A stretch of DNA of 64,000 bases, from the NCBI GenBank assembly GCA_965645245.1, contig OZ287068.1, forward strand, positions 1,488,001-1,552,000, given 5' to 3'. This document shows, piece by piece, positions 1 through 64,000 of the stretch; the stretch's first letter is position 1, and every line of letters starts with the position of its first letter. A program made the position numbers and the translations under genes. The notes under the pieces are model-generated. The model was not told the origin of the DNA. It made no database searches and saw only the letters and a program-made list of their open reading frames with translations. Source of the DNA: Massalongia carnosa (Eukaryota).

Positions 1-225
1 GGCTCTTACCAAAGTGGTTAGGCAGTCAAAAGCGCATAGAAAGATGCTTATGACTAGAAGCATTAATAGTCACAAAAGATGGATGATGATCATGAAGGAA
101 TTGCTGAAAAAAACCCCGATGTATGTAGAATAGTTGATTTTTGGCTGTATGGCTGTATGGCTGGTCCTGGCTGTATGGCTGGCTAGCACTAAGCGAGTCG
201 ACCGAGCGAAAGTGTGGGGCACGAA
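1..225 (+). mobile_element. 3' end (transposase C-terminus + TIR) of a pogo/Fot1 DNA transposon, same family as 9069-11292; truncated by window edge
   Basis: 1-133 encodes ALTKVVRQSKAHRKMLM..KRWMMIMKELLKK, matching the C-terminus of ORF 9136..9585; TIR ...gctagcactaagcgagtcgaccgagcgaaagtgtggggcacgaa then TA (226-227) matches the TIRs at 9069 and 11292. Confidence 0.85.
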
Positions 226-275
226 TAGAAATTAAGCGAAATTTAGTTAGTCCCGTTGCCCAGTGAAATACGTTA

Positions 276-2113
276 GTGTCCGACACCTCAGTGACGCACT
301 TTTCCCATTTTACCTACCACTCTTCACCACGTAATCACTCCACCACATCATGTCTAGTTTATCTTTCAGTAAGGAGAATCGAATTCTTGAAGCTATTGAC
401 GCGTGGGACACGGGTGATTTTCGAAGTGTGCGCGCGGTAGCTTTGGAGTACGACGTGGACATTCGTACTCTACAGAGAAGACTTAATGGAGGTGGTTCGA
501 AAATCGGTCGTTCTGCCCCCAACAAAGCTTTGTCTGATGAACAAGAATTAGCTCTTTGTGAATATATTAAAATGCTCGATCAAGCCGAACAATCTGCCAG
601 ACTTCCAATGATTCGGGCGGCAGCAAATTATCTACTTCAAGAGGCTCATTCAGACGTTTTCACTCCTTCTCCTCACGTCAGCAATGCCTGGACCAAACGT
701 TTTCTGACTCGACATCCTCAATTCTTCAAACGCAAACAAAAACCACTAGCCGTCGAGCGAAAACATGCGCACAACGTCGATGATATATTGGAATATTTCG
801 AGACATATCGGGCTGCTCGCGAGGCTCTTGGAGTAGCGGATGAGGATATTTGGAACATGGACGAGACAGGCTTTCGAATTGGCTGTGGGCGAGCTCATTG
901 GGTTGTTTCAACTCATTCTAGAAAGTCTTTGCTGTTGACGGACTCGGACAATAGAGAATATATCACCTCGTGTGAATGTATTAGTGCAGGGGGGCGTGAT
1001 ATCCCCCCCATGATCATAATCGCTGGTGCATGGGTGCTGGAGAAATGGGCCTAACACAATGACTTGGATGATGATATTCACCTGACCACCAGTCCTACCG
1101 GCTATTCCAATGATGATTTAGCTCTCGATTGGTTGAAAATTTTCGACATACATAGTCGAAAGGGGCTGGTAGGTGCATGGCGCATGCTCATCATGGATGG
1201 ATATGGATCTCATATGACATTCGAGTTTTTTACCTATGCCAAACGAAACAAAATCGAATTGTTTCGTCTTCCACCTCATTCCACACATCTCACTCAGCCA
1301 TTGGATGTAGGATGTTTTCAGCCTTTCAAACATTATCATTCCGAAGCCATTGATCAACTGATGCCGGGTGGAGGGTCTGATTTCGATAAACTCGACTTTC
1401 TGTCGATTTTTCAGAACATGCGAAATCAAACATTCACGTCAACTACCATACTAGCTTCATTCAGAAACACGGGTCTGGTGCCTTATAATCCAGAAGTGGT
1501 ACTCCGCAAAGTGGAGGCTATTCAGACCCGTAGGCCTGCTACCCCGCCCCCACTTCCATCAGCTCCATTGCTCGCCAGAACACCTTCCACATCCAAAGAA
1601 GTTGTTTAATATGAAAATAAGCTTCCGGAAAGCCTGAAGAAGTACATTGTTTTGAATGCCGAGTGGGACTGTCCTGTGGAACGATTTGTGAAAGGCTCCA
1701 TCTCCAGTGCTCATGCACGTCAGATTTCAGAGCGAGACCTTCGGGCCAATCAGATGCTGTCCATCGCGAAGACAGCACGACGAAAACTTGATGGAAAGGT
1801 GACCCAGAAGGGAGGAGTCATAACCGTTCGAGATGTACGGGCGAAGGTTACAAAATGCACTCAGAATGAGGTGGAAAAGACCAAGCAGGCCCATGAACGT
1901 GCCGTACTAGCTGCTGAAAAGAAGCAATTAGCCCTGGATCGAAAGTATAGAGCAATCGCTCGATCTATGTCCAGGCAAGCAAAGCTGTTTTACCAGCGTC
2001 ATAGTCAATTAAATTCTACATAACCACTGTTGTCCACAAATTATATGTAAGATAGTAGGTAAAATGGGAAAAGTGCGTCACTGAGCTGTATGCGTCACTG
2101 AGGTGTCGGACAC
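276..2113 (+). mobile_element. pogo/Fot1-family DNA transposon, full length
   Basis: TIRs GTGTCCGACACCTCAGTGACGCA at 276 and its reverse complement ending 2113; TA on both sides (274-275, 2114-2115); internal transposase. Confidence 0.95.
350..2023 (+). pseudogene. pogo/Fot1 transposase (HTH-psq, CENP-B HTH, DDE_1) with two in-frame stops
   Basis: ORFs 350..1054, 1064..1609, 1652..2023 are one frame; motifs WNMDETGF, LIMDGYGSH, LPPHSTHLTQPLDVGCF; TAA at 1052 and 1607. Confidence 0.9.
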
Positions 2114-2386
2114 TAGTAGGCGACTCGCTTCGATTACTAGTTTCTTGACACGATTAGATGATCGAGTAGGAGACACCTGTGATAGACACCGGCGGTTGCG
2201 TTTGTTGGGTTGCTTTCATCAGTTTCGTATTATCGAGTCTCACTGCTGGTACAACCATGAGCCATCAAGTTGGTTTCCAAAGGGGCACACACAACTCCTA
2301 TGAAACTTTGTTTTTTAACTAAGCACGCTAAGGTATCAATGTCTCTAGGGCTGAATTTGATGTCTTGGCATTCGCAGGGCAACTCT

Positions 2387-4088
2387 GGGAGGATGACACA
2401 AAAAGTCCTTGGATGCGCTAAGAATGGCACTAAGGATTTAGCGCTGCATCAATGCCCCTTTTCCATATTTGATTTATCATCTTTATTTTTCACATCAACC
2501 TCATTTTCAAACGATATAATGCATTAAAAATCAGGTCTATATGCAGACTTATGACATGATCAGTCTACATTACTGCTGTCAGATATAATGTCTTTGCGAT
2601 AGCGAATGCGACGATCTTCGGAATTATATGGCCGAATCACACCATTGTCTCGACCCTCTCGATACTCGTTTCCTCCATTCAAAGCGATGACTTCTTCTAT
2701 ATGTCATGGAATTCGTTCTATCCATTGCAGAATTAATTTTGTTTCAGAGTTTTTGTCCAGCACCGAGTCCATGCTTTGATAGCCGTAATGCGATTTCGAG
2801 GTGCTCCTTTTCGTGTGGTATGCCTTTTCATCTAAGGCCAACATTGCTCGATCATCTTCAAATCAGGAGAATTACCCGGCCACAATAAAAGCAAGACTTC
2901 TGCATCCATAAAGACGAGGTCTTGATGTTTGGAAGCATAACTAGGGGCCCTGTTCTCCTGCACAACAGTATCGGGACGATCTTTTATACAAGCTTTTGCA
3001 AACGGAAGAAGTTTAGGAAGAAGAATAGTTTTTTGATAATGATACCAGTCGATGCCCCCTTTGCCTTTTCGAGCCACTTTTCCATGCTTTTCATCCCATT
3101 TCCAGACCGGTTTTCGACCTCCTTTGGTACGCAGTCCCATTCGTTTCATGCCTATTTCCAATTCCCAATTTTCTTTCGCTAGAGGCTCCAATGCCTCATT
3201 GATTTTGTCGATTTCTCCTTGAGCGGCACGTTTTTCTGCCGCTGTCTCCGGCTTCCATATATGAAAAGGACCTTTCTTTTCATACGAAAAACAACCCCAA
3301 AACATGAATTCGGAACATCCTTTCCATCTACGTCGAATGCACGTTTGAGCATATTTTTCTTTTGGAGTTCGCCACTGAAGTCTTCGTCCTTTTCGAGAGC
3401 CTAACACAACACTAGTTTCATCGCTCCATATGACATTCTTCCAGTCATCGAGAGTCCAATGACGATAACGCAAACAGAATTGCAATCGAGCCTCTTTCAT
3501 TGCTGAATCAAGGCCTGGTTTCATGGTAGATTTGCAGGGACGAAAGTTATTGCGTCGAAGAACATTGAGAATAGTTCTAGATGAGACTCCGTGCTCATAT
3601 CCCAAAACGGCTGAGGATTTTTCTCTACAATTTTGATCATGACGAACGTTGTCTAAAACGGCCTGTTCTACCTCAGACGTCACTTTAGGAAGACGTCCTG
3701 AACGACATGCATCTTCTACGTATTCTACCTTCAATATTCGCGAAACAGTGGGATCATATCCTCGATCTCGTGCCTTGCGTTTGAGATAGCTGATAGACTG
3801 AGTAGAGATTCCGATGACTGCTTGAACGACTTTGGCTGTTATGCCGTGTTCAATCAAGGATAATGCTTGTAACTTTTGACCGATGGTCAGACTATTGTTC
3901 TGAGTTCGTGATGTCATGATATGAAGCATATAAAATTTTACTTGATGATATTTGATAAATAAAAGATGCTGCACAGGTTAAAATATACAATATCTATAAA
4001 AACCCCTATTTAATTTTTAGCGTCCTTTCTGCATGACGCTAAAAATGCACTAATGCACGCTACCAAGGACTTTTTGTGTCATCCTCGG
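2387..4088 (-). mobile_element. Tc1-family DNA transposon (defective), relative of the 11426 and 29717 family
   Basis: TIR GAGGATGACACAAAAAGTCCTTGG at 2389 and reverse complement ending CTCGG|TA at 4088; left terminus degenerate; ORF 2832..3974 has WSDET and WPGNSPDLKMIE, second catalytic D changed to N, TAG at 2832. Confidence 0.9.
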
Positions 4089-4157
4089 TACTTGGCGCTA
4101 TTTATTTGTTGTTTACCATCTAATCTGTTTTAGTTCTTGAATTTTGGTCGGCTCCAA

Positions 4158-6050
4158 ATGAGGAGCTTCAGACCATCATCACCCTTTGGTCAAAGCTCTT
4201 CTTGGGTTTGTCACCTATGCATGCGTGCATCCTACTCTCGTACTCCGAGAAGTGGGAGATTTGCGACAAAGGCTACAAAGGCACGTTTTTTAAAAAGCCG
4301 TAAATCCACTATTCTTATGGGAGTAGTGAGTGGAACTCTTGCAGCAGGTGTGATAACTGGAACATATGATGATCTGAAGCATGGTTACGCTGCGGCTCGA
4401 AGAAGTGGGCGGGTGTTAGCTGCACTCGCCGTCTGCATAAACGAGTAGGTTTCGATCGATGGATTAAGAAGCATTTGGATTACCCATAGCTAAAAATTAT
4501 GTTGTAGCTATCGAAATACGCTAAGGAAAAAGTCAAAGCATGAAGAGGATTGGCCAACGATCTTGAAAGAATGTCATCGGCGCTGCTCTGAACGTACGTT
4601 GCGTGTACTTGAACAGAACGGTTCGATCTTCATCAAGCTTGGCCAACACTTGAGCAGCATGAACTATCTACTTCCACTTGAATGGACAGCAACTTTTATC
4701 CCGCTTCAAGATCAGTGCCCCATTTCATCATATGAATCAATTGAGGAAATGTTTATATCAGACACTGGGTTGTCGATTGCGGAACACTTTATTGAATTTG
4801 AGAAGAAACCCATCGGCGCTGCATCGCTTGCTCAAGTGCATCGAGCAAGGCTCAGAGAGACGGGACAAGAGGTGGCTGTCAAAGTGCAACATCCGTCGCT
4901 CAAGGAATGGGTGCCGCTTGACTTGGCTCTAACCAGGCTGACGTTTTCTACTTTGAAGAAATTTTTTCCTGAATACGACCTTGAGTGGCTTTCAAGCGAA
5001 ATGGAGTCTTCCCTTCCACAAGAATTGGATTTTGCTCTGGAGGGGAAGAATGCCATGCGAACGAAAGAATACTTTGGGATGTTACACGACATTCCTCTTG
5101 TAATACCAGAAGTGAATTGGGGGTTGAAACGGATACTAGTAATGGAATATATCTCCGGACATCGAACCGATGATCTTGCATTTATTGATGCGAATGAAAT
5201 CGACCGTGACGAGGTCTCTGCTACACTAGCTCGTATCTTTAATGAGATGATATTCGGTGATTGTGCATTGCATTGCGATCCACATGGTGGAAACATTGCA
5301 ATTAGAAAAAATACTTCAAGGCGAAGACCAAATTTTGAGATTGTCCTGTATGACCATGGTCTCTACAGAGAAATACCAAAGCAGTTACGGCGAGATTACG
5401 CAAAGCTATGGCTTGCGGTGATCAATGGAGATGAGAAGGGCATGCGAAAATATGCGTTCAATGTTGCTGGCATTACAGATGAGCAATTCCCTCTATTTGC
5501 CAGTGCTATTACCGGACGAGACTATAAGGCCGTGACGACATCTGTGGTGTCGATGAGGTCAGCGGAGGAAAAAGAAGTGATCTCAGGCGCCATGGGGGAT
5601 GGCATGTTACAGCAGGTGTGAGAGTCTATATCTACTTTCTTTCTGCAGCTAACATATCCAAGTTGGTCCAGCTTCTCGGCCAAGTACCTAGGATCATATT
5701 GCTTATTCTCAAAACTAATGACTTGAGTATGTCTATCATCACCGCTGAAGTGCGTGAACATATCAAACTAAACCCCTTAATTCGCAGCACGGAGCTTAGA
5801 TGAAAACCTACAAACTAGAGAAGGTCCTGTGCGAAACTTCATGATACTCGCCCGGTACTGCAGTAGAACGGTCTTCATGGAGCAATTAGAAATCATTGGC
5901 CAGCATGGGAACATATTATGGCCAAAGAATCTTCTTCGATTCCTTCGAGCTTGGAGCTCATATGTGACAGTTGATTTAAGACTTTCGCTGTACGAATACT
6001 ATATCTCACTCAGACGTTTAGTACACTTACCTGGGACATCAATATTCTAA
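4158..6050 (+). CDS. ABC1/UbiB atypical kinase (ADCK1/Mcp2-like, probably mitochondrial); exons approx 4158-4444, 4508-5615, 5663-5726, 5788-6050
   Basis: Motifs FIKLGQ, AASLAQVH, VAVKVQHP, LHCDPHGGN, LYDHGL; GT-AG introns with CTAAC-like branch sites join the ORFs in frame; basic N-terminal presequence. Confidence 0.92.
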
Positions 6051-6410
6051 TTTAAAATCTAATTCTTCAGACCATAATGCCGCTTCAGTTATCTTTAAGC
6101 GCGATCTGGGTGGGCGTAGCGTCACGATGAGCACACAGATACCTAAATTGACTGCAGAAGCTTGGTACAACCTCTGCGGACAGCCATAGCTTCCACAGCG
6201 AGCCAGCTGCAAGTTTGGTTGGTCATTCGAACAGGCTGGTGTGTTAAATCTCAGGGATTTTTTATGTATCCCATGGCTTACTTCCAATATGCCTGTTGGG
6301 GCCTCACCACAAGGAATTTTCTGTGGGCCACCTAAGGAGCGCACCAGAGGGAACTGGAGAGGACAACTAAGAGAGGTATCCTAAGATCCTTACTCCTGCG
6401 GCTCAACAAA

Positions 6411-7247
6411 TCACTCTTCTCTCCAGCTTGCATCATCTGTACTGATGACCACTTCCTGTACACTAAGCCTGTCGCTTACAATTTCCATTCCGTTAACAAG
6501 ATCATTTTCTGTAACCCTCTTATTGGCATCTGCGTCATCTTTGGCAATTCCCGCCCTGATATGTCTTCTCACCAGTCTCTGGCGAGCTATGTCAAAATCA
6601 ACATCTACGAACCACAGTTCATTCATCAATGCGGCCGACTCTTTCCATAATCCTTTATTCAGGCTCAGGTAATTACCCTCAAACACAACAACTCGGGCCG
6701 TGGGAGCTATCGGAATATCGCCTTCTACAGGATCTTTAATGGCATGATCAAAGGAGGGGGCATATAGAGTTGTGGTTTCGGGCCCAAGTTGCTCCCGGAG
6801 CTTTCGGACCAAGGCAAGAAACGCTTTATCGTTGAATGTAAAAGCTGCACCTCTTCTGGCATGCGCGTACGCCGGATCAGTCATGGCAGACAGCTCGGCG
6901 CGTGAGAGGTGATACCCATCCATTGGAACGATTACGGCGATGGGGCTGGATGGGCAATCTGGAGAGGTTATGGCGTGCAGGGCGTTGAGCCGCTGGACCA
7001 CCTGGCTGGCGAGAGTAGTCTTTCCTGTTATTTTATGAATATCGTACCTGGGCTATGGGCATCTAACATATATGAGGAAGACATACCTGATCCGGGAATC
7101 CCTGACACCGCTATCAAAAGCCGTTGGGAACTTGCTGTCTGATGGTGCATGGCTTGAAACCGGTCACAATCATCATCTCGAGCATGCATACTGCAAGCAA
7201 TTCTTACCCCAGGATTTTTGGACCAACCGTTCTACTTGTTCTTCCAT
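6411..7247 (-). CDS. Phosphoribulokinase/uridine kinase-family P-loop kinase (Yfh7-like), 3 exons
   Basis: Start MEEQVERLVQKSW; Walker A GIPGS|GKTT split by an intron; motifs PMDGYHL, RRGAAFTF, APSFDHAIKDP, FEGNYL. Confidence 0.9.
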
Positions 7248-27794: not shown

Positions 27795-28474
27795 GACTAA
27801 ATTAACTATAGATTAACGAGAGGAAGCTGTGTATTCAAAACGTATAAGAGATTGATTCCCCGTCTCGTAGAATATATCTCATGCAAAGCCTCTCCTTACT
27901 TGACGAAGACTGGAGAATGGCGAAGTGAGAATAATGGTGCATCCTCCTATCAATATTAAAAAATCATGGTTGTTATAGTACACAATATCTTACTTGAGAT
28001 GTGAAGGACTGTAAAAGGTCGATTAGTCTCTGATATGCATTTTGTACGGAGTATCTGGGGAGAAAATTGCAACTTATTATTATTTATAGCTTAGCGTACA
28101 TGCATGCCCGCAACCCGTTTTGATACACCCTTGAGGTTTTTTTTTTTATTAATTCATTAAGCGTATGCATCCTAAGGATATGACGCTGTGACTGCTATTT
28201 AGGTACATAAACAACAGTCAGGAAGTGGAAACCTGGCCCCCAGGGTAAAACCACTCCCTTTTTCCATGTTGAACGCAACGAGAACGTCCTTCTACCACGC
28301 GGTGCATACACCCAGATCTTCAAGCGCTAGGAATCATATAGACTCGATGAACTAGACAGTGTATTTCCACACGTTTGACGAACGTTCTCTCTCTTTAAGT
28401 GTTTTGATTCAATGGAGGAAAGACTGGCCGTGATCGAGGGCAGATCGTGGTGTCGTATAAATGAAGGTGTGTAA

Positions 28475-28620
28475 GTGTGACCATTCTAAATGAATGGGCT
28501 TTTTCGATGTGGTGATAGGCTTCCGCCTGAGGGGTGTGGCCATTCCGAATGAATGGGCTTTTTCGATGAAGTGAAAGGCTTCCGCCTGAGGGGTGTGGCC
28601 ATTCTGAATGAATGGGCTTT
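28475..28620. repeat. 59-bp tandem repeat, ~2.5 copies
   Basis: Units start at 28475, 28534, 28593 (gtgtggccattccgaatgaatgggctttttcgatgaagtgaaaggcttccgcctgaggg). Confidence 0.9.
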
Positions 28621-29716
28621 GTATGTGTGCCTTCGAGGTGACGAATGATCAGTAGAGACGTTGATCGTTCAAATGGCCACCGAGGTGGACGTCCGCGTTG
28701 GCGATGATCAGATATTGGCCACCTCCGAGGAGGTGTTGATAGCCTGCACCACGTAGAGGTTTCTGACCCAGCAGGCCCACCATTGAGGTTTAACCTCCCT
28801 ACGAAGAACCCCAAAGCTTCTTTTTCACCTACTACCATAGCTGATGGTTTTTATCATGTGAGTTTAATCAGCGTATTCAATTCATCCAGAACCCAGAAGA
28901 TTGTACGATCTTTGAAAAAGGGTTAAGGAGTCTGTATTAAATAACTACATATGGCCAAAAACCGTTCCTGCATAGACTAGGCAAATTTGCCTGCTACCAT
29001 TACCTTCATTCAATAACCCATCGTTGTGATTTGTTTAATAAGACAATCCTCTAGCACATTTGGGTTTTCTAATGGTGGGCACAAAAGACTCTTGGCAGAA
29101 CAGATTGGCCGAACTATATAATATGTTTTTATATTGTTAAACGGTCAATATCACTTTTCAGGAGAGAACTCTTCTGCCCCTAAGTTCCCCACTTGTTGCC
29201 CCAAATCCTCTCATCTTATTTCTATACTAATAACTTAATCAGGTTGTCCAAATAATTTTCTTTTCTGGTGTTTTTGGTTTATTTGTGACCTAACAACCTG
29301 CCTACCTTTCTTCAAACCGATTGGGAAGGGAGGTAGGAAAGTAGAGAAGTATAAGGGGAAAAACGAGGGGGGAAAAGGGATGAAAGGTTGAAGATTCAGG
29401 AAGGTAGGCAAAAAGAAGCAGGTTTTAGGAACGTAAGGAATTAAAGTACAGACAAGGTTGGAACATCTCGATCGAAAAGATGAAAATGAACCTATTTATT
29501 ATACGTTGGTTGTTCCACCAAACGCTCAACAAAAGCGACGAACACTCTGCTAGCTTTTGCCTGTATCCTTCGAATGTGCTGAAGTGGTTTTGTCAGTAAG
29601 TGATGGTGCTTATTTCGCTTTGTATATTCTGTACTCTGCAACGGATTTTGATAAGATTGATATGCCCAACCAACTCCATATGTATTGAACTATATCTCAA
29701 GATGCATGAAGCGGTA

Positions 29717-45808: not shown

Positions 45809-46264
45809 TACGCCGCGCAACGGGTTGGGTTAAACCCGTCGGGTTTGGGTCGGGTTTTCGGGTCGGGTTGGACTCCCTCGAACCCGACCCGACGGGTTCG
45901 GGTTTATTATGCGGGTTTCCGGGTTAAACCGTTTAACCCGGTCAGTTTTTTCTGTATGAAAATTCGACGAAAATATAACGTTTAAACTGATAAAAATTCT
46001 GCTTACTAATCATCATTTCTTGATGACGAATTTTCAGAATTTTCAGAATTTCCAAATGTGTTTAAAACGTCTAAAAAACATGTTTAAAAATGACATAAAA
46101 AATCGACCGGGTCGAACGGGTCGACCGGGTCGAACGGGTCAAACGGGTTAACCCGGGAACGGTTCCCCAACCCAGCGGGTTGAGCCCTACAGGTTCCCCA
46201 ACCCGGTAGCGGGTCGGGTTCGACTAGTCAAAACCCGACCCAACCCGACCCGTTGCGCGGCGTA
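45809..46264. mobile_element. hAT-type MITE copy 1 (456 bp)
   Basis: TIR TACGCCGCGCAACGGG, perfect 8-bp TSD TCAGTAGG (45801-45808, 46265-46272), many subterminal ACCCG/CGGGT motifs. Confidence 0.92.
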
Positions 46265-46723
46265 TCAGTAGGTAGGAACTGAGCGGGAGAATTCACTAAG
46301 CGAAATCAAGATAGACTTAAAAGTCTATATTTACGCAACATGGACAGTCTACGCATAAAGTCTGAGTATGCACCTACATTCAAGCAATTCTATGATCAGG
46401 TCCGTATTTTTGACAATATAACTGCCCCTAATCGCGTCGCATTTGTGCCTAATAGTCAACATTTCTTCTAGTTGATAACGGGCATCGAAAAATATAGTAT
46501 CACAGCAGATAACGTCTATAATTGGGACGAAAAGGGCTTTTTAATTGGCATGGGCCTCTGTCGTAAAGCGAATAATGACCCTTGAAGCTCTAGAATCGGG
46601 GCGCATAATTCATGCGAGTCAAGATGAAAGTCGTGAATTCATCAGACTACTGGCTTGCATATGCGCAAACGGTACCGCTTTACCACCCGCGCTGATCTAT
46701 AGAGGCGATTCAAAGACACTCTC

Positions 46724-54974: not shown

Positions 54975-55339
54975 TACGCCGCGCAACGGGTCGGGTTGGG
55001 GAACCTGTAGGGCTCAACCCGCTGGGTTGGGGAACCGTTCCCGGGTTAACCCGTTTGACCCGTTCGACCCGGTCGATTATTTATGTCATTTTTTTAACAT
55101 GTTTTTTAGACGTTTTAAACACAATTGAGAGATCTGAAAATTAGTCATCAAGAAATGATGATTAGTAAGCAGAATTTTTATCAGTTTAAACGTTATATTT
55201 TCGGCAAATTTTTTTATTTTATTTGCAGAAAAAACTGACCGGGTTGAACGGTTTAACCTGGAAACCCGTATAAATAACCCGAACCCGTCGGGTCGGGTTC
55301 GAGGGAGTCCAACCCGACCCAAACCCGTTGCGCGGCGTA
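54975..55339. mobile_element. hAT-type MITE copy 2 (365 bp), inverted relative to copy 1
   Basis: Same 16-bp TIR; flanks ATTGTGCC / ATTGTGTT (6 of 8 match). Confidence 0.9.
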
Positions 55340-56059
55340 ATTGTGTTTTTTAGTCGGGAGGACAGGTAGCACATTGGTAGAAATCTATTCACTATTTCGC
55401 TTCGTCACAATATAGAGGTATTTAGAGGAGTAGCAATGATAATTTCTCGTATACCTAGAGGGAGGTACGAAAGCCAAATTATTTTGGCGAATAGAAATTT
55501 TCTGTATACATCAAATTGGAAACTTTTTATATGTTATGATCTATCTAGAGACAAGTTTTAGGGACACTAGAAACGAATACAATAAAGATAAAGAAGGAAA
55601 AAGACAATTGACGACAAGAACTTGCCTCTATATATCTACTATTGCGCTGTAAAGGGATAAACTGGGTGGTGGCGAACGATAGAAGGATGGAACAAACCAA
55701 CAAATAACCGAATCAACAGAGCCTCACTGCATCGATAAATGAATCGTCATGCCCATCAATGGCCGACTAGCAGTATGAATGAAAGTGTCCATGATAGCTT
55801 TGTGTGTTGATAGCAGTATGATCCGAAGATAGATATCCCGAAAGATGAGAAGGAAAGTGCGAGAAAAAGACTCATATAACCGGAACGCCAAGACACCAGC
55901 ACCCGACCACATGACCAATTACCTGACTTACCACCTGACTTGCCACCAACCCGGTGGAGTTCCACTCTACCCCTCTACAGCGCTAGTACCCATGTGGTAT
56001 TAGCGTGGTAGAATCTTCTAGTATCTGCAAAAATCGAAGATACGGGAACGAAATCGTAA

Positions 56060-56168
56060 TACGCCGCGCAACGGGTCGGGTTGGGTCGGGTTTTGACTAG
56101 TCGAGCCCGACCCGCTACTGGGTTGGGGAACCGTTCCCGGGTTAACCCGTTTGACCCGTTCGACCCAG
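56060..56168. mobile_element. hAT-type element end, copy 3 (one terminus only in window)
   Basis: TACGCCGCGCAACGGGTCGGGTTGGGTCGGGTTTTGACTAGTCG matches the reverse complement of the copy 1 right end, then diverges at ~56168. Confidence 0.85.
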
Positions 56169-57288
56169 TTTAAATTCAAAAATTTACAGAGACACCGCAC
56201 TGAAGCAGCAACAGTACCGTCGATTTTGATACTCTGAAACTTTCGCATTAGATTCTACCCATCTTTCTCATTCATTTGAGCTCCTCGTGAGCAAAAACGC
56301 ACCAGAATTGGGTACGGTAGAGCTCCTTCAAGGCTCCTGCAGAGTTTTTCTGCTAGTCGCATCCATCCAACTCACTCCAAAAAACGCCTAAAATTTACAA
56401 AAAACAAAAAACATCTACAATTCCATCAAAAATCGCTCAATCTTCGATATCTCTTCGATTTTATTGTCGTATAGACCTCAGTTATTATCACCGAAATCAT
56501 CAATAAAAATTTCTCACTATCGCGTTACTGTACACCTGTTGTCGTCGCGTCAAAATCTTTGAAGTTCATTTTCATATTTAAGGTTTCTAGTACGTGCACA
56601 AGCAGTATATTTCTTGCATATTCAGTGCATATTTCGTGCATAAGTTTATTTTAGGTTTTCTTGTTCATCATCGAACGGCCAGACCAACAATCTACTTTCG
56701 GACATCTATTCCTAAACATTGGACGGCCCGCTGAAAGGAAGAGGAAAAAGTCTGGAATAGGGTTACGCCAAAGGCCCTGTTTCAGGCTAATCAGAATAGG
56801 AGGTCCCTATTTTCTATATCGTACTTGATTTATTTTTGATTAAAAAACACTAAAATTATCCTATTTGATCAAAGTTTTTATTATTTTCAACTACCGTAGT
56901 GTCTGGTAAAGGTTTAAATCAGACTTACTGCCTAAGCGAGGAACGGTCTAATTTAACCCGATAAGGATTTATTTGACTTGTTATTGTCAATTAAATAGGG
57001 ATAGGAAAGAAAGAGTTATTTGACCAGTAAATCGGTGTAATATCTATTCTGACTAGTACGTCTAGGGAACGTCAGAATAAACTATTGGGTTGTGATAAAA
57101 TGGATATAGAAAAGGCATGTTCAACCAGGTAATCAACCCGGTAGCAGACTCGGCACTCCCTAGAACTAGGCGATTTTTGGCGAGACCACTCCCCCAAGGC
57201 CCCCCATCTAGAAATTTATCGGCCCGCCCAAGTACCCCCCCTATTCCTCCCCCCCCAAAACAACTCTCCCGCGCCATCTTCAGTAGCC

Positions 57289-57703
57289 ATGATAGGGAGC
57301 TCACCCCCATCCGACGAGTTTATAGAAGCTATAGACCAGTCAGGGAAATTTTCGTCCGCACCCTCCACACCGAACCCTAAAGCGAAAGTCTTCACTGCTC
57401 CATCTGGTAATTTTACTACCAATTTACCTATGCCGTCATTATATTCGAATATTGGACTAAGCCCGCCAATCAAACGCAATAAAATACGAACATTTGACGA
57501 GTATTCGATTGAAAATCAAGAAGTCATCAATCGAACGAAATCAATTCAACTACTTAATACGGCTAAAAATGCACTACTGGAGTCATTCGTACTAGATCAA
57601 AATCCCGAAACGGCTATTGTCATTGATAATTTTAATTCTCTACTGACAAAGAAATCAATCAAGCCTAAAGAAACACTGGAAATGATTGATTGGAAATTGA
57701 ATA
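57289..57703 (+). pseudogene. Possible N-terminus of a LINE (Tad-like) ORF1, truncated by the Tigger-like insertion
   Basis: Pro/Ser-rich then helical AT-rich ORF after a long AT-rich leader, cut exactly at the TA insertion site; family assignment is by resemblance only. Confidence 0.4.
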
Positions 57704-58892
57704 CAGTGAACCCTGGTTAAAACGAACCTTTTTCCAACGAATTCGGCTTATAACGAATTTTTTTCATGAATGAGCGATTCTTGTATGTAAAATAACGAAT
57801 GTCGGCCTATTGCGAATTCGTAAGCAATTTTAGAAAGTTTCTTAGTGATTCGCTATAACTAGACCTCGGCAATTACCCTTTTAGGATTAGCTGATAAAAA
57901 TTCTTGATACGTAGTACTACATGCTGCGCATCCTATCGATAGATAACATATCCTTTTAATAACCAACAACTCATCATGAATTCTTCCTCCAAAAAACGTC
58001 GTCGACCTATCACAGATGCAGAAAAACACGCACTTCGTCAGTATGTTCAGAATAATTTCGTTAAAAGACCTTTCGGCAAAGCTCTTCAAGTCTGGTTTGA
58101 AGCTGAATTCGGTCATACACCTTCGGAATCTACAATATCGGATATTCTTTCTCGAAAATACGATCGTTTAAATGAGAAGGAGATATTTCAACCTGATATC
58201 AAAAGATTGAAAGCTTCTTTTTGGCCGGATCTTGAAGCGGCTCTTTTCGAATGGCAACAACGAATGCAGACAAAGCAGGCGACTGTGACGGGAGAGTTAT
58301 TGAAGGAGATGGCAAAGAAAATCTGGACAAGACTTCCTCAATACTCTCATGAAGAAATGCCCAAATTTTCTAACGGTTGGCTAGATGCTTTTAAAGCTCG
58401 TCATTCCATCTCCTTTCGTATTCGACATGGAGAAGCGGCATCAGTTGACAAGGAGACAGTGGAAGAAAAATTGAGGGACTTGAGAATTAAGTTGGCTCCG
58501 TACGATCAAGACGATGTATACAACATGGATGAGGCTGCATTGTATTGGAAGATGAATCCGAATGGAACGTTGGCTACAGCTTCATCTGCTGGATTGAAGC
58601 TTGAGAAAGCTAGAATAACCGTTAATTTTTGCGTTAATGCAACGGGCACTCATAAACTTCCACTTTTGTTCATTGGTACGGCAAAAACACCTCGCTGTTT
58701 TACGCGTGAGGGGATCAACGTTAGCAACCTGAATATGCTATGGCGAAGCAATAGAAAGGCATGGATAACGGGAGTATTATTTAAAGAGTATTTGCAATAG
58801 TTTAGTCGTCAAACAAATCGCAAAGTAGTCTTGCTAGTCGATGGATTTTCAGCTCATGTTGCTGGCTATCGTTAGTATTCAGAATCAAATCC
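57704..58892 (+). mobile_element. Tigger/CENP-B-like pogo DNA transposon, 5' part; transposase from 57976, stop at 58798, interrupted by a LINE
   Basis: TA|CAGTGAACCCT terminus; WPDLEAALFEW, FSNGWLDAFKARH, RHGEAAS, YNMDEAALYW, then *FSRQTNRKVVLLVDGFSAH. Confidence 0.88.
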
Positions 58893-61006
58893 TTTTTTTT
58901 ATTTATTTATTCATTAAGTGTATTCAACGTAAGGTTATGACACTAAACTATTTTAGGATATGTTTCTATATTACAAATAAATCAACCCTTTATAACCCAT
59001 CTAATTTTTCCCCATTTTTACTCCGTGTTAGTAACAACCTATAGTAATCGAAGAATATCGATTTTAAAATTTGTCTTTGTAAGTTCGTGAAAATTTCAGC
59101 ATAAATCCTTTCTGATTTTACTGTTCGATCTCTCCCCAACCTCCAGTTTCGAAAATCTCGTCATCAAGCTGACCTAGTATCCATTTTCTTGTCGCGATTT
59201 TGTTATTGACAATGAATTTAATCAAAATGTCATTTCCGATTTTTGTATTAAACAACATATTCAAGTTGATCGTAGTATCGATATTTTGTTTCATGTTTTG
59301 AATTTCATCGAAATAGTGAATGCAATTCAATAACAAGTGTTCTGGCGTTTGTCGTTGATTGCATCGATTTGTGCATTTTGACGAATTATAATCTTTCAAT
59401 CGCTGTAAATATGATCGAAAATAGCCGTGTCCGAATTTTAATTGCATAATAGTAGCAAATATCAATTTGGAACAGTTGTTTGATAAATAATAAAATCTCG
59501 ATATGCCAGGTTTCATTTCGAATTTCTCGTAGTATTTGCCTTTTGATTTGCATTGTTGCCATTGATTCGTCCATGTGGTTAGCATATTTTGATTTATTTG
59601 ATCTTTTACATAATCAAATGTTATCGCCGAGGACTCGACTAGGATTTGATTATGGCCCGTCTTTGCTATTTTGTCTGCAATTTCGTTTTCGGTAATATTT
59701 GAATGACTCGGAACCCATTGCAAAATCACCTGAAAATTGCTTTCAAATAAGAGTTTTGCGAGCTTACGAATTTGTCTGGCGAAAATATGATTTGTCAAGT
59801 TCTGAATTTCGTTTATCGCGTTTATACTATCAGAAAAAATCCAAATCGTTTTTTCTAAGTTCGATAAAATATTAGTATTCGACAATTTATAGACCCATTT
59901 CATTGCTTGTAAAATCGCATGCAGTTCAGCATTTTTAATGCTTGACTGTTTGCTTAATTTCCAGCTTTTCGAAATCGTATGATACTTGATCAGACAATCT
60001 TTTTCGATAAATCGATTAAAATTATTGATAATATTACTCCAATTCCTTATAATTGGAGCAAATGTGACTGCAGACGTCGCAAATTCGATTTTCGATCTAT
60101 CTGTATAAAGTAAAACTCGGGATTTATCGGAGTTCATTGATTTAATTTTGGATAAGGTCGAATAATAACTTGATTTAGCAGATTACTTTGTATTTTCGAT
60201 TTGAAATTCGATTTTGCAAGGCGATTTCCAAGGTTTAATAAAATGATTTGATTGTTCAAATTCATCAGTTTTGTGAACTATGTCGGAAACGGAATGAAGA
60301 ACGCGAATAAGCTGACTAGGATGTCGTTTATTTGTTTGTTTTTCGTCTTCGTTCCATTCGGCATATTTGTTGTTCCATAAACTTGTGTCAAAACCGATAT
60401 TTTCGAATTTTATCGAATATATGTTTGGAATTCTTTGACAAATAGGGTTATTTTCGGCAATCTTCAATAATCGAATTGCGTATTTTTGATTTTTCATTAA
60501 TAATCGAAGTTTAACTGGTAAAACATGTGATTCAATTTCCATCGCCTGAACAGGTGTGGTTTTGAAAGTTCCTAAAATCTATCGAATCATTTGATTTTGT
60601 AGGTTCTGAAATAGTTTTTCATATTTCTTTAGACCATTATACCAAATTTCTGAGCCGTAGTCCGAAATAGGAATAATGCATGACATATAGAGCTGTCTGC
60701 ATGCGGTCGGTTTCAGACCCCATTCGGATTTCATCAAATTCTGAATTGCAAAAAACGATCGATTCGCAGAAGAGATCCGCGTTTCGACGTGTTTTTTGAA
60801 ATTTAATTTTCGGTCTAACCAGACGCCCAACCATTTGACTACATTTTTCGGTTCTAGTACTGTCCCGTTTGGTAATTCCAATGTGTCTTTCGATAGATTT
60901 CTTGTCTTTTCGAAGTGAATCAGCTCGGATTTATCGTCATCAAATTTGACATTATTCGATGCGGCCCAATCAAAAGCCGTTTTGACTATGATTTCGATTT
61001 CTTTGC
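58893..61006 (-). mobile_element. LINE (Tad/I-type, RNase H-containing) 3' part, copy A (~2.1 kb)
   Basis: (TAAA)n+poly(A) tail at 58893; RT thumb VKWLGVWLDRKLNFKKH; RNase H YTD(R)SK..AELHAI..IFSDS..LQWVPSHS..NEIADKIAK; zinc knuckle C..C..QTPEHLLLNC; stops at 60183 and 60579. Confidence 0.92.
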
Positions 61007-62502
61007 TTTTTTTATTTATTTATTCATTAAGTGTATTCAACCTAAGGTTATGACACTAAACTATTTTAGGATATGTTTCTATATTACAAATAAATCAACC
61101 CTTTATAACCCATCTATGTATCGTCAATTTTTCCCCATTTTTACTCCGTGTTAGTAACAACCTATAGTAATCGAAAATTATCGATTTTACAATTTATCTT
61201 TGTAAGTTCGTAACTGTTTCAGCATAAATCGTTTCTGATTTTACTGTTCGATCTCTCCCCAACCTCCAGTTTCGAAAATATCGTCATCAAGCTGACCTAG
61301 TATCCATTTTCTAGTCGCGATTTTGTTATTGACAATGAATTTAATCAAAATGTCGTTTCCGATTTTTGTATTAAACAACATATTCAAGTTGATCGTAGTA
61401 TCGATGGTTTGTTTCATGTTTTGAATTTCATCGAAATAGTGAATGCAATTCAATAACAAGTGTTCTGGCGTTTGTCGTTGATTGCATCGATTTGAGCATT
61501 TTGACGAATTATAATCTTTCAATCGATGTAAATATGATCGAAAATAGCCGTGTCCGAATTTTAATTGTATAATAGTGGCAAATATCAATTTGGAACAGTT
61601 GTTTGATAAATAATAAAATCTCGATATGCCAGGTTTCATTTCGAATTTTTCTCTTAGTATTTGCCTTTTGATTTGCATTGTTGCCATTGATTCGTCCATG
61701 TGGTTAGCATATTTTGATTTATTTGATCTTTTACATAATCAAATGTTATCGCCGAGGACTCGACTAGGATTTGATTATGGCCCGTCTTTGCTATTTTGTC
61801 TGCAATTTCGTTTTCGGTAATATTCGAATGACTCAGAACCCATTGCAAAATCACCTGATAATTGCTTTCAAATAGGCGTTTTGCGAGCTTTCGAATTTGT
61901 CTTGCGAAAATATGATTTTTCAAGTTCTGAATTTCGTTTATCGCGTTTATACTATCAGAAAAAATCCAAATCGTTTTTTCCAAGTTCGATAAAATATTAG
62001 TATTAGACAATTTATAGACCCATTTCATTGCTTGTAAAATCGCATGCAGTTCAGCATTTTTAATGCTTGACTGTTTGCTTAATTTCCAGCTTTTCGAAAT
62101 CGTATGATACTTGATCAGACAATCTTTTTCGATAAATCGATCAAAATTATTGATAATACTACTCCAATTCCTCATAATTGGCGCAAATGTGACTGCAGAC
62201 GTTGCAAATTCGATTTTTGATCCATCCGTATAAAGTAAAACTCGGGATTTATCGGAGTTCATTGATTGAATTTTGGATAAGGTCGAATAATAACTTGATT
62301 TAGCAGATTCCTTTGTATTTTCGATTTGAAATTCGATTTTGCACGGCGAGTTCCAAGGTTTAATAAAATGATTTGATTGTTCAAACTCATCAGTTTTGTG
62401 AACTATGTCGGAAACGGAATGAAGAACGCGAATGAGCTGACTAGGATGTCGTTTATTTGTTTGTTTTTCGTCTTCGTTCCATTCGGCATATTTGTTGTTC
62501 CA
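61007..62502 (-). mobile_element. LINE 3' part, copy B (~1.5 kb), frameshift near 61650
   Basis: Poly(T) at 61007, same 3' UTR and RNase H ORF as copy A. Confidence 0.92.
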
Positions 62503-64000
62503 TTTTTTTTTTTCATTTATTCATTAAGTGTATTCAACCTAAGGTTATGACACTAAACTATTTTAGCATATGTTTCTATATTACAAATAAATCAACCCTT
62601 TATAACCCATCTATGTATCGTCAATTTTTCCCCATTTTTACTTCGTGTTAGTAACAACCTATAGTAATCGAAAAATATCGATTTTACAATTTATCTTTGT
62701 AAGTTCGTAACTGTTTCAGCATAAATCGTTTCTGATTTTACTGTTCGATCTCTCCCCAACCTCCAGTTTCGAAAATATCGTCATCAAGCTGACCTAGTAT
62801 CCATTTTCTAGTCGCGATTTTGTTACTGACAATGAATTTAATCAAAATGTCATTTCCGATTTTTGTATTAAACAACATATTCAAGTTGATCGTAGTATCG
62901 ATGGTTTGTTTCATGTTTTGAATTTCATCGAAATAGTGAATGCAATTCAATAACAAGTGTTCTGGCGTTTGTCGTTGATTGCATCGATTTGAGCATTTTG
63001 ACGAATTATAATCTTTCAATCGATGTAAATATGATCGAAAATAGCCGTGTCCGAATTTTAATTGCATAATAGTAGCAAATATCAATTTGGAACAGTTGTT
63101 TGATAAATAATAAAATCTCGATATGCCAGGTTTCATTTCGAATTTCTCGTAGTATTTGCCTTTTGATTTGCATTGTTGCCATTGATTCGTCCATGTGGTT
63201 AGCATATTTTGATTTATTTGATCTTTTACATAATCAAATGTTATAGCCGAGGACTCGACTAGGATTTGATTATGGCCCGTCTTTGCTATTTTGTCTGCAA
63301 TTTCGTTTTCGGTAATATTCGAATGACTCGGAACCCATTGCAAAATTACCTGATAATTGCTTTCAAATAAGCGTTTTGCGAGCTTTCGAATTTGTCTTGC
63401 GAAAATATGATTTGTCGAGTTATGAATTTCGTTTATCGCGTTTATACTATCAGAAAAAATCCAAATCGTTTTTTCCAAGTTCGATAAAATATTAGTATTA
63501 GACAATTTATAGACCCATTTCATTGCTTGTAAAATTGCATGCAGTTCAGCATTTTTAATGCTTGACTGTTTGCTTAATTTCCAGCTTTTCGAAATCGTAT
63601 GATACTTGATCATACAATCTTTTTCGATAAATCGATCAAAATTATTGATAATACTACTCCAATTCCTCATAATTGGCGCAAATGTGACTGCAGACGTTGC
63701 AAATTCGATTTTTGATCCATCCGTATAAAGTAAAACTCGGGATTTATCGGAGTTCATTGATTGAATTTTGGATAAGGTCGAATAATAACTTGATTTAGCA
63801 GATTCCTTTGTATTTTCGATTTGAAATTCGATTTTGCACGGCGATTTCCAAGGTTTAATAAAATGATTTGATTGTTCAAACTCATCAGTTTTGTGAACTA
63901 TGTCGGAAACGGAATGAAGAACGCGAATGAGCTGACTAGGATGTCGTTTATTTGTTTGTTTTTCGTCTTCGTTCCATTCGGCATATTTGTTGTTCCATAA
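62503..64000 (-). mobile_element. LINE 3' part, copy C (runs off window), frame intact in view
   Basis: Poly(T) at 62503; ORF 62738..63757 with intact YTDGSK, and the frame stays open towards the window end. Confidence 0.92.

Follow-up and report, generated by a model that had tools for sequence, protein, structure and literature searches.

Centromere-associated non-LTR elements are known from Drosophila, in which G2/Jockey-3 occurs in retroelement islands inside satellite DNA and CENP-A binding has been shown. In Blumeria, the centromeres are marked by LINEs; in the ascomycete B. graminis, RII_Fuji and the Tad1-family LINEs of gene-scarce regions show high turnover and are restricted to a single gene-free region on each chromosome, according to the accessible portions of PMC5964911, PMC6587952, and PMC13124064. 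The Zepp/ZeppL elements of green algae, which belong to the L1 clade, form one cluster per chromosome by nested insertion, with arrays of 3′ ends, and are described in the available text of PMC8226300 as targeting existing copies. Grem-LINE1 of Mucor is a fungal LINE that is specific to gene-free pericentric regions; it is an L1-clade element of a lineage without CENP-A and occupies regions of 15–75 kb around small core centromeres (10.1101/706580, in the part available). The HeT-A/TART/TAHRE elements of Drosophila are terminal and one-directional and replace telomerase (PMC13534243, accessible portion). In the available part of a centromere atlas, transposon-cluster centromeres were found in 34 of 49 fungi, and LTR elements are named for the lichen fungus Ramalina siliquosa (10.64898/2026.09.17.752431); the centromeres of Cladonia rangiformis have been read as RIP regions in the accessible text of PMC12542154. 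Nothing on centromeric LINEs was found in PMC5381539, and no description of a lichen-fungus centromere built from LINEs was found in a search that reached a minority of the subscription papers and the atlas without its supplements.

In this report, we describe a LINE family that resembles those of Blumeria in being a probable ascomycete element of high turnover that is restricted to a single gene-free region on each chromosome. The Blumeria centromeres are genetically mapped, span 0.68–2.4 Mb, and contain 11 LINE families and tandem repeats in the descriptions available, and G2/Jockey-3 is an animal element with CENP-A binding, whereas the regions described here measure 40–160 kb, contain one family, and are known from sequence alone. 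The best reading is that of a region-targeting, probably centromeric LINE like RII_Fuji of Blumeria in a probable lichen fungus. The three adjoining copies that are the subject of this analysis are likely to be separate target-primed insertions of this active LINE, which is confined to one, probably centromeric, region per chromosome.

The window is the whole stretch of 64,000 bp that was analyzed (C2:1,488,001–1,552,000), where C1–C25 denote the contigs of the genome and A, B, C, E, and X denote element copies. Coordinates within copies refer to an intact natural LINE copy at C2:1,604,064–1,610,870 (the reference). The window holds the left 7.8 kb (56213..64000) of a nest of transposons, and the features of this locus are as follows.

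C2:1,544,213–1,626,161 (82 kb), both strands: C2 nest, putative centromere; 65% one LINE family, with other transposons in the remainder
56213..57703, plus strand: copy X, 5′ UTR and ORF1 start of a divergent LINE of the same family; left edge of the nest
57704..58892, plus strand: 5′ half of a Tigger element (Tc5/pogo-type DNA transposon) with Pfam HTH_ABP1_N, HTH_Tnp_Tc5, and DDE_1
58893..61006, minus strand: LINE copy A, 3′ 2.1 kb (reference 4675–6798); tail inserted in Tigger
61007..62503, minus strand: LINE copy B, 3′ 1.5 kb (reference 5303–6797); tail joined to A at reference 4675
62503..64000, minus strand: 3′ end of LINE copy C, which spans the whole element and reaches about C2:1,557,915, past the window

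The family element is about 6.8 kb in length, and the intact copy encodes an ORF1 of 552 aa and an ORF2 of 1337 aa. The domains Exo_endo_phos_2, RVT_1, and RNase_H were identified in ORF2. ORF1, in whose sequence three CCHC motifs are recognizable, is gag-like and gave no Pfam match (PRE_C2HC was not found), and its nearest Atlas clusters are ascomycete gag-like proteins. The combination of APE, RT, and RNase H in ORF2 with a zinc-knuckle ORF1 upstream is that given for LINEs of the I superfamily in the available part of PMC4641428, and the family belongs to this type. The nearest named relatives of the RT region are from Lasallia pustulata (53%) and the LINE proteins of Sclerotinia (44–46%), with no Blumeria protein among the named relatives; the chromosomal clustering of the Sclerotinia relatives, as judged from locus tags, is mixed. 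A public run that contains part of the window is labelled lichen metagenome, and the host is likely to be a lichen-forming ascomycete. Both the domain set and these relatives indicate a member of the fungal RNase H group and not of the L1 clade; the family is probably of the fungal Tad1/CgT1 type, with Tad1 as its candidate clade. No chromodomain or other targeting domain was detected in the LINE proteins at E ≤ 0.05. The family shows an A-rich 3′ tail, 5′ truncation, and target-site duplications, and its copies arise through target-primed insertion, which leaves short duplications. That the family has recently been active is shown by its intact ORFs and by copies that are identical between several chromosomes. 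Changes of C>T plus G>A account for 97 of 472 private substitutions, the CpA share is 43% versus 37% expected, and no RIP signature was found in the family copies.

The initial annotation had recognized three minus-strand copies of one RNase H LINE family, and this is borne out by the coordinates and by the RNase H domain. The A-rich tail of each copy was found to be joined directly to the broken 5′ side of its left-hand neighbor with no spacer, as had also been stated for the joints to the previous copy or to Tigger. The accompanying account of decay holds in part. Copy A carries the two reported stops (60581 and 60185) and TDRS, and the deletion in its 3′ UTR is 10 bp and not 9 bp. The single frameshift reported for copy B is real (2 bp), and it is not the only lesion, as one premature stop is present at 61654–61656. 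Copy C, described as intact in view, is broken past the window, where ORF2 has deletions of 14 and 1 bp (two frameshifts) and the 5′ UTR, just beyond the window, contains a 704-bp insertion that is itself a plus-strand copy with a 14-bp duplication. ORF1 of copy C carries three CCHC motifs, and its ORF2 has the arrangement APE-RT-RNase H.

From this decay and from variants common to B and C, it had been proposed that age falls from left to right. The common variants are present and mark a sublineage that consists of B and C, with A in another, and are not a sign of age. In an alignment of 76 family copies over the last 1.4 kb, the private substitutions were 5 for A, 7 for B, and 2 for C (equal rate, p = 0.26), and none of the 200 bootstrap trees grouped A, B, and C as a clade. 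These results leave no left-to-right order of age in the decay of the copies. Each of the three has private variants and different nearest relatives on other chromosomes, and these relatives rule out a tandem duplication of B and C. The possibility that copy C is a purely local recombinant was not supported; a copy on C6 matches C at 98.6% overall.

Copy X is 72.7% identical to the reference over reference 23–1462 and is cut by the Tigger element. The latter is 99% identical to an intact copy, and both of its halves were mapped; the 3′ half is found on the same strand at C2:1,582,739–1,583,766, beyond the window and 35.8 kb to the right. Between the two halves, 31 bp of Tigger are absent, and the split is without a target duplication. 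Next to the 3′ half is the 5′ end of another minus-strand LINE copy of a different subfamily, and the DNA to the right of Tigger is not a continuation of copy X. The 5′ end of copy C is joined to a broken plus-strand copy (E) and not to the remainder of B. Copy E was considered as the remainder of X, which is unsupported because the two are of different subfamilies. Further to the right of the window, the nest contains family copies on both strands with LTR elements between them. A search for the missing 5′ halves, as suggested in the initial annotation, thus recovered the remainder of Tigger and not those of A and B, which were absent from the seven nests read (C1–C6 and the second C7 nest), as were swapped flanks for A or B. 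Since the A and B remainders were not found in the nests read, Tigger is split without a duplication, and X is not continued, several unseen rearrangements are needed. The C2 locus is a nest in which deletions have occurred as well. The most likely order of nesting is Tigger, followed by A, B, and then C.

The genome comprises 52.16 Mb in 25 contigs, of which C1–C22 are of chromosome size, C23 and C24 are 1 kb, and C25 is 70 kb. The 3′ marker of the family gave 363 matches, 100 of which were listed and used, and two 5′ markers had 100 of 108 and 52 of 52 matches listed; clusters were drawn from 253 positions, which are the listed matches of the three markers and one further position. One main cluster was found on each of C1–C22 (22 of 22), and together these hold 241 of the 253 positions among the matches listed. 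The main clusters are 40–160 kb each and sum to 2.08 Mb (4.0% of the genome), and none is nearer than 400 kb to a chromosome end. Of the 12 positions outside them, nine belong to a second cluster on C7, and C10, C19, and C22 have one each. A young-copy marker that had not been used for drawing the clusters placed 99 of 100 listed matches inside them (103 matches in all). The family is thus confined to one region per chromosome, with the exceptions of the second, 39-kb cluster on C7 and four solitary markers on C10, C16, C19, and C22.

A junction census was made for the main nests of C1–C6 and the second C7 nest (589 kb, 70.2% LINE family). Among 91 tails, 35 are in same-strand copies, 28 in opposite-strand copies, and 28 elsewhere, and a 9–15 bp duplication at the copy's own 5′ end was found for 29 of them. 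The nests contain young, nested copies on both strands, and serial self-insertion of the family, one of the origins initially put forward, is correct. The polarity read from the array is not upheld, since target orientation is unbiased (35 versus 28, p = 0.45) and the next copy to the right of C lies on the plus strand; genome-wide, the 3′ marker is found in 178 forward and 185 reverse orientations.

Sequence-directed self-targeting, as proposed for Zepp, would have the element recognize its own copies, with nests as the consequence. The landing of 63 of 90 tails within the family (one stub outside a nest having been dropped) could be taken in this sense, as could the nonuniform target positions (KS p = 0.005) and the few sites that recur (reference 5303 twice, 3061 three times, and 4394 twice). 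However, self-hits are just as frequent as the coverage of the DNA by the family predicts (p = 1.0), the targets range over reference 5 to 6731 on both strands, and Tigger, LTR elements, and other DNA inside the nests are hit as well. The full-length solitary copies on C10 and C19 have also seeded no nest within the 10 kb read. In contrast to Zepp, the LINE family has RNase H, is inserted in both orientations, and has no excess of self-hits over its area share; self-targeting by sequence is therefore unlikely. A mild self-preference may exist, as present coverage overstates past coverage and some of the targets classed as non-LINE may be misclassed.

Template jumping, in which a single reverse transcription event copies A, jumps to the tail of RNA B, and then to RNA C, is improbable. 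In its favor, the A–B joint is unique in the genome, an equal age of the copies is not rejected (p = 0.26), and the remainders of A and B were not found in the seven nests. The same nests contain 14 head-to-tail pairs, and among the 12 other than A–B and B–C, six have a duplication or remainder and six are without a detected one. However, the B–C joint recurs at C9:787,121, where a full-length copy of another subfamily occupies the identical nucleotide position in a different host copy, which resumes behind the insert with a 12-bp target duplication (the C9 nest was read for 20 kb). This marks the B–C joint as an ordinary endonuclease site and favors an insertion of C into B over template jumping. 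The transfer of a B–C composite to C9 as a unit was rejected, since 64 substitutions separate the C9 host from B and the inserted element is from another subfamily. Template jumping would also require three different source copies, and the 5′ end of C is not joined to Tigger. Moreover, remainders are lost about equally often at opposite-strand targets, for which jumping is no explanation: of the 35 same-strand targets, 16 showed a duplication or host remainder and 19 showed neither, and of the 28 opposite-strand targets, 16 showed one and 12 showed neither (p = 0.45), by an automatic detection in which a few distant remainders may be chance. Nesting plus deletion very probably accounts for the triplet, which is an ordinary product of nesting.

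A further alternative is passive accumulation, in which the family inserts everywhere and survives only in gene-free, nonrecombining regions. In its favor, the nests lack genes and contain transposons of other kinds: when the ORFs of at least 170 aa in the gaps of the seven nests were examined (83 in all), 66 had transposon domains only, 17 had no match, and none belonged to a host-gene family, although short exons could be missed. Left of the C2 nest, seven of ten hand-picked ORFs match host families. A few family copies are found outside the nests. Against this explanation, other elements persist along the chromosome arms. A second LINE, equally young and with full-length copies near 100% identical, has 4 of 43 rows in the clusters (compared by eye), and Gypsy and Tigger have 2 of 31 and 2 of 21 places, respectively; these controls for dispersal count the best-scored candidates only. 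The identical, newest copies of the family are located in the nests. Survival alone is thus improbable, and active targeting of the region by the family appears fairly likely.

An assembly artefact or local tandem duplication is very improbable: no piece bridges A–B or B–C among the listed short-read contigs of public runs, but A, B, and C have their private variants and distinct relatives on other chromosomes, neighboring insertions have clean duplications, and in two runs, of which one is possibly the source sample, tail-to-body joints at other sites have the depth of a single copy. Capping of a chromosome end or break in the manner of HeT-A/TART, also raised initially, is hardly credible, since the locus shares with those arrays only the local head-to-tail appearance of three copies and is internal (1.55 Mb from the nearest end of C2, which is 3,635,028 bp in length, has TTAGGG arrays near 4.4 kb and 3.6336 Mb, and gave no family match in the terminal 5 kb at either end) and bidirectional (plus-strand copies follow the triplet), and the block lies between the two halves of Tigger. 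TTAGGG arrays are present on both C1 and C2 and were seen at 10 of the 17 other chromosome starts that were checked, and no head-to-head telomere fusion motif was found in the genome.

For the favored reading of separate insertions into a preferred region, the following steps are proposed, the first three of which are observed. The endonuclease nicks with a relaxed preference, frequently directly behind A/T, where the tail primes and leaves the 9–15 bp duplications found for 29 of 91 tails. Since the LINE family already makes up about 70% of each region, most new copies land in older ones, in both orientations. An insertion in the same orientation creates a joint of a tail to a broken 5′ side, such as A–B and B–C, and such joints occur elsewhere with their remainders, including the one at the identical site on C9. 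The remainders of A and B would have been removed by deletion, either when C inserted or through subsequent recombination among the copies. The agreement of self-hits with the area share, together with the survival of other young elements along the arms, suggests that the region is chosen by chromatin or a tethering protein and not by element sequence or survival alone. This region is quite probably the centromere. Our guess would be that ORF2 or ORF1 tethers to a centromeric protein.

The LINE family is new, but its kind, a probable centromere-targeting LINE, is known, and the internal control is unusually clean. The nests provide candidate centromere positions for all 22 chromosomes, derived from the assembly. 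In this genome, a LINE that is intact, recently active, and confined to one region per chromosome, and that shows no RIP signature, stands beside an equally young dispersed LINE, and the two form a pair suited to finding the determinant by which non-LTR elements pick centromeres. A more tentative proposal, which we consider possible at best, is that the LINE homes to CENP-A chromatin by means of its own proteins and without a chromodomain, that nested insertion and deletion both build and turn over the centromere DNA on all 22 chromosomes, and that the second C7 nest, which on weak evidence lacks the youngest sublineage, would be a centromere switched off after a chromosome fusion and dated by the element. 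The best copy of the second C7 nest, which contains about five tails, is at 96.6%, versus at least 98.9% in the six other nests.

The outer edges of the DNA transposon Tigger (window 57704 and C2:1,583,766) were each found to adjoin a LINE 5′ piece. The two pieces are unrelated and lie on opposite strands, which suggests either an adjacent deletion or recombination between two Tigger elements. Mismatched flanks were found for two very young, full-length copies of the nest-forming LINE, the RNase H-bearing family whose copies pile up in one main nest per chromosome:

C1:1,754,332-1,761,128, full-length copy (99.7%), two flanks mismatched
C4:1,366,220-1,373,015, full-length copy (99.7%), two flanks mismatched

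These flanks imply that insertion is often accompanied by deletion, or that identical copies often undergo exchange. The two copies at C5:1,928,029 and C5:1,940,947 are identical, lie on opposite strands and have their 3′ flank in common; the pair is a local inverted duplication.

The 5′ ends of many copies define at least three subfamilies, which differ in their 5′ UTR/ORF1 starts (70-80% alike) and have ORF2 in common. Extra bases are frequent between the 5′ end of the element and the target duplication.

Chromosome C7 carries a second nest, 1.4 Mb from its main one:

C7:2,099,329-2,138,157, second nest, 82% nest-forming LINE

The youngest sublineage is absent from this nest, which is possibly a silenced centromere. 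A search of the genome for the head-to-head motif of a telomere fusion returned none. The telomere arrays of C2 lie 4.4 and 1.3 kb inward of the contig ends, and in the C3 telomere (C3:1-1000) a variant repeat is mixed among the hexamer units.

A second LINE family serves as a natural control for targeting by the nest-forming LINE; its near-identical copies are scattered on chromosome arms. In a domain search APE and RT were matched, and RNase H was without a match.

C1:1,813,215 (3215-6856 in the stretch read there), copy of the second LINE, APE-RT

Left of the C2 nest, a Gypsy element is surrounded by inverted repeats that are probably the termini of another transposon:

window 45857-46265, 54992-55323 and 56059-56169, long inverted repeats

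Among the relatives of the nest-forming LINE in Sclerotinia (P0104, P0134, P0173 and P0179), some pairs have adjacent locus tags, a hint of clustering. However, two relatives on chromosome 11 are far from each other.

Solitary copies of the nest-forming LINE were found outside the nests:

C10:2,052,001-2,058,690, solitary copy
C19:1,625,376-1,631,729, solitary copy
C22:1,267,111, solitary copy, 3.8 kb between its 5′ end and the telomere array
C16:621,937, solitary copy

At window 28137-28187, an old stub of the nest-forming LINE's tail, 51 bp long, lies amid host genes, close to a 59-bp tandem repeat (window 28475-28651).
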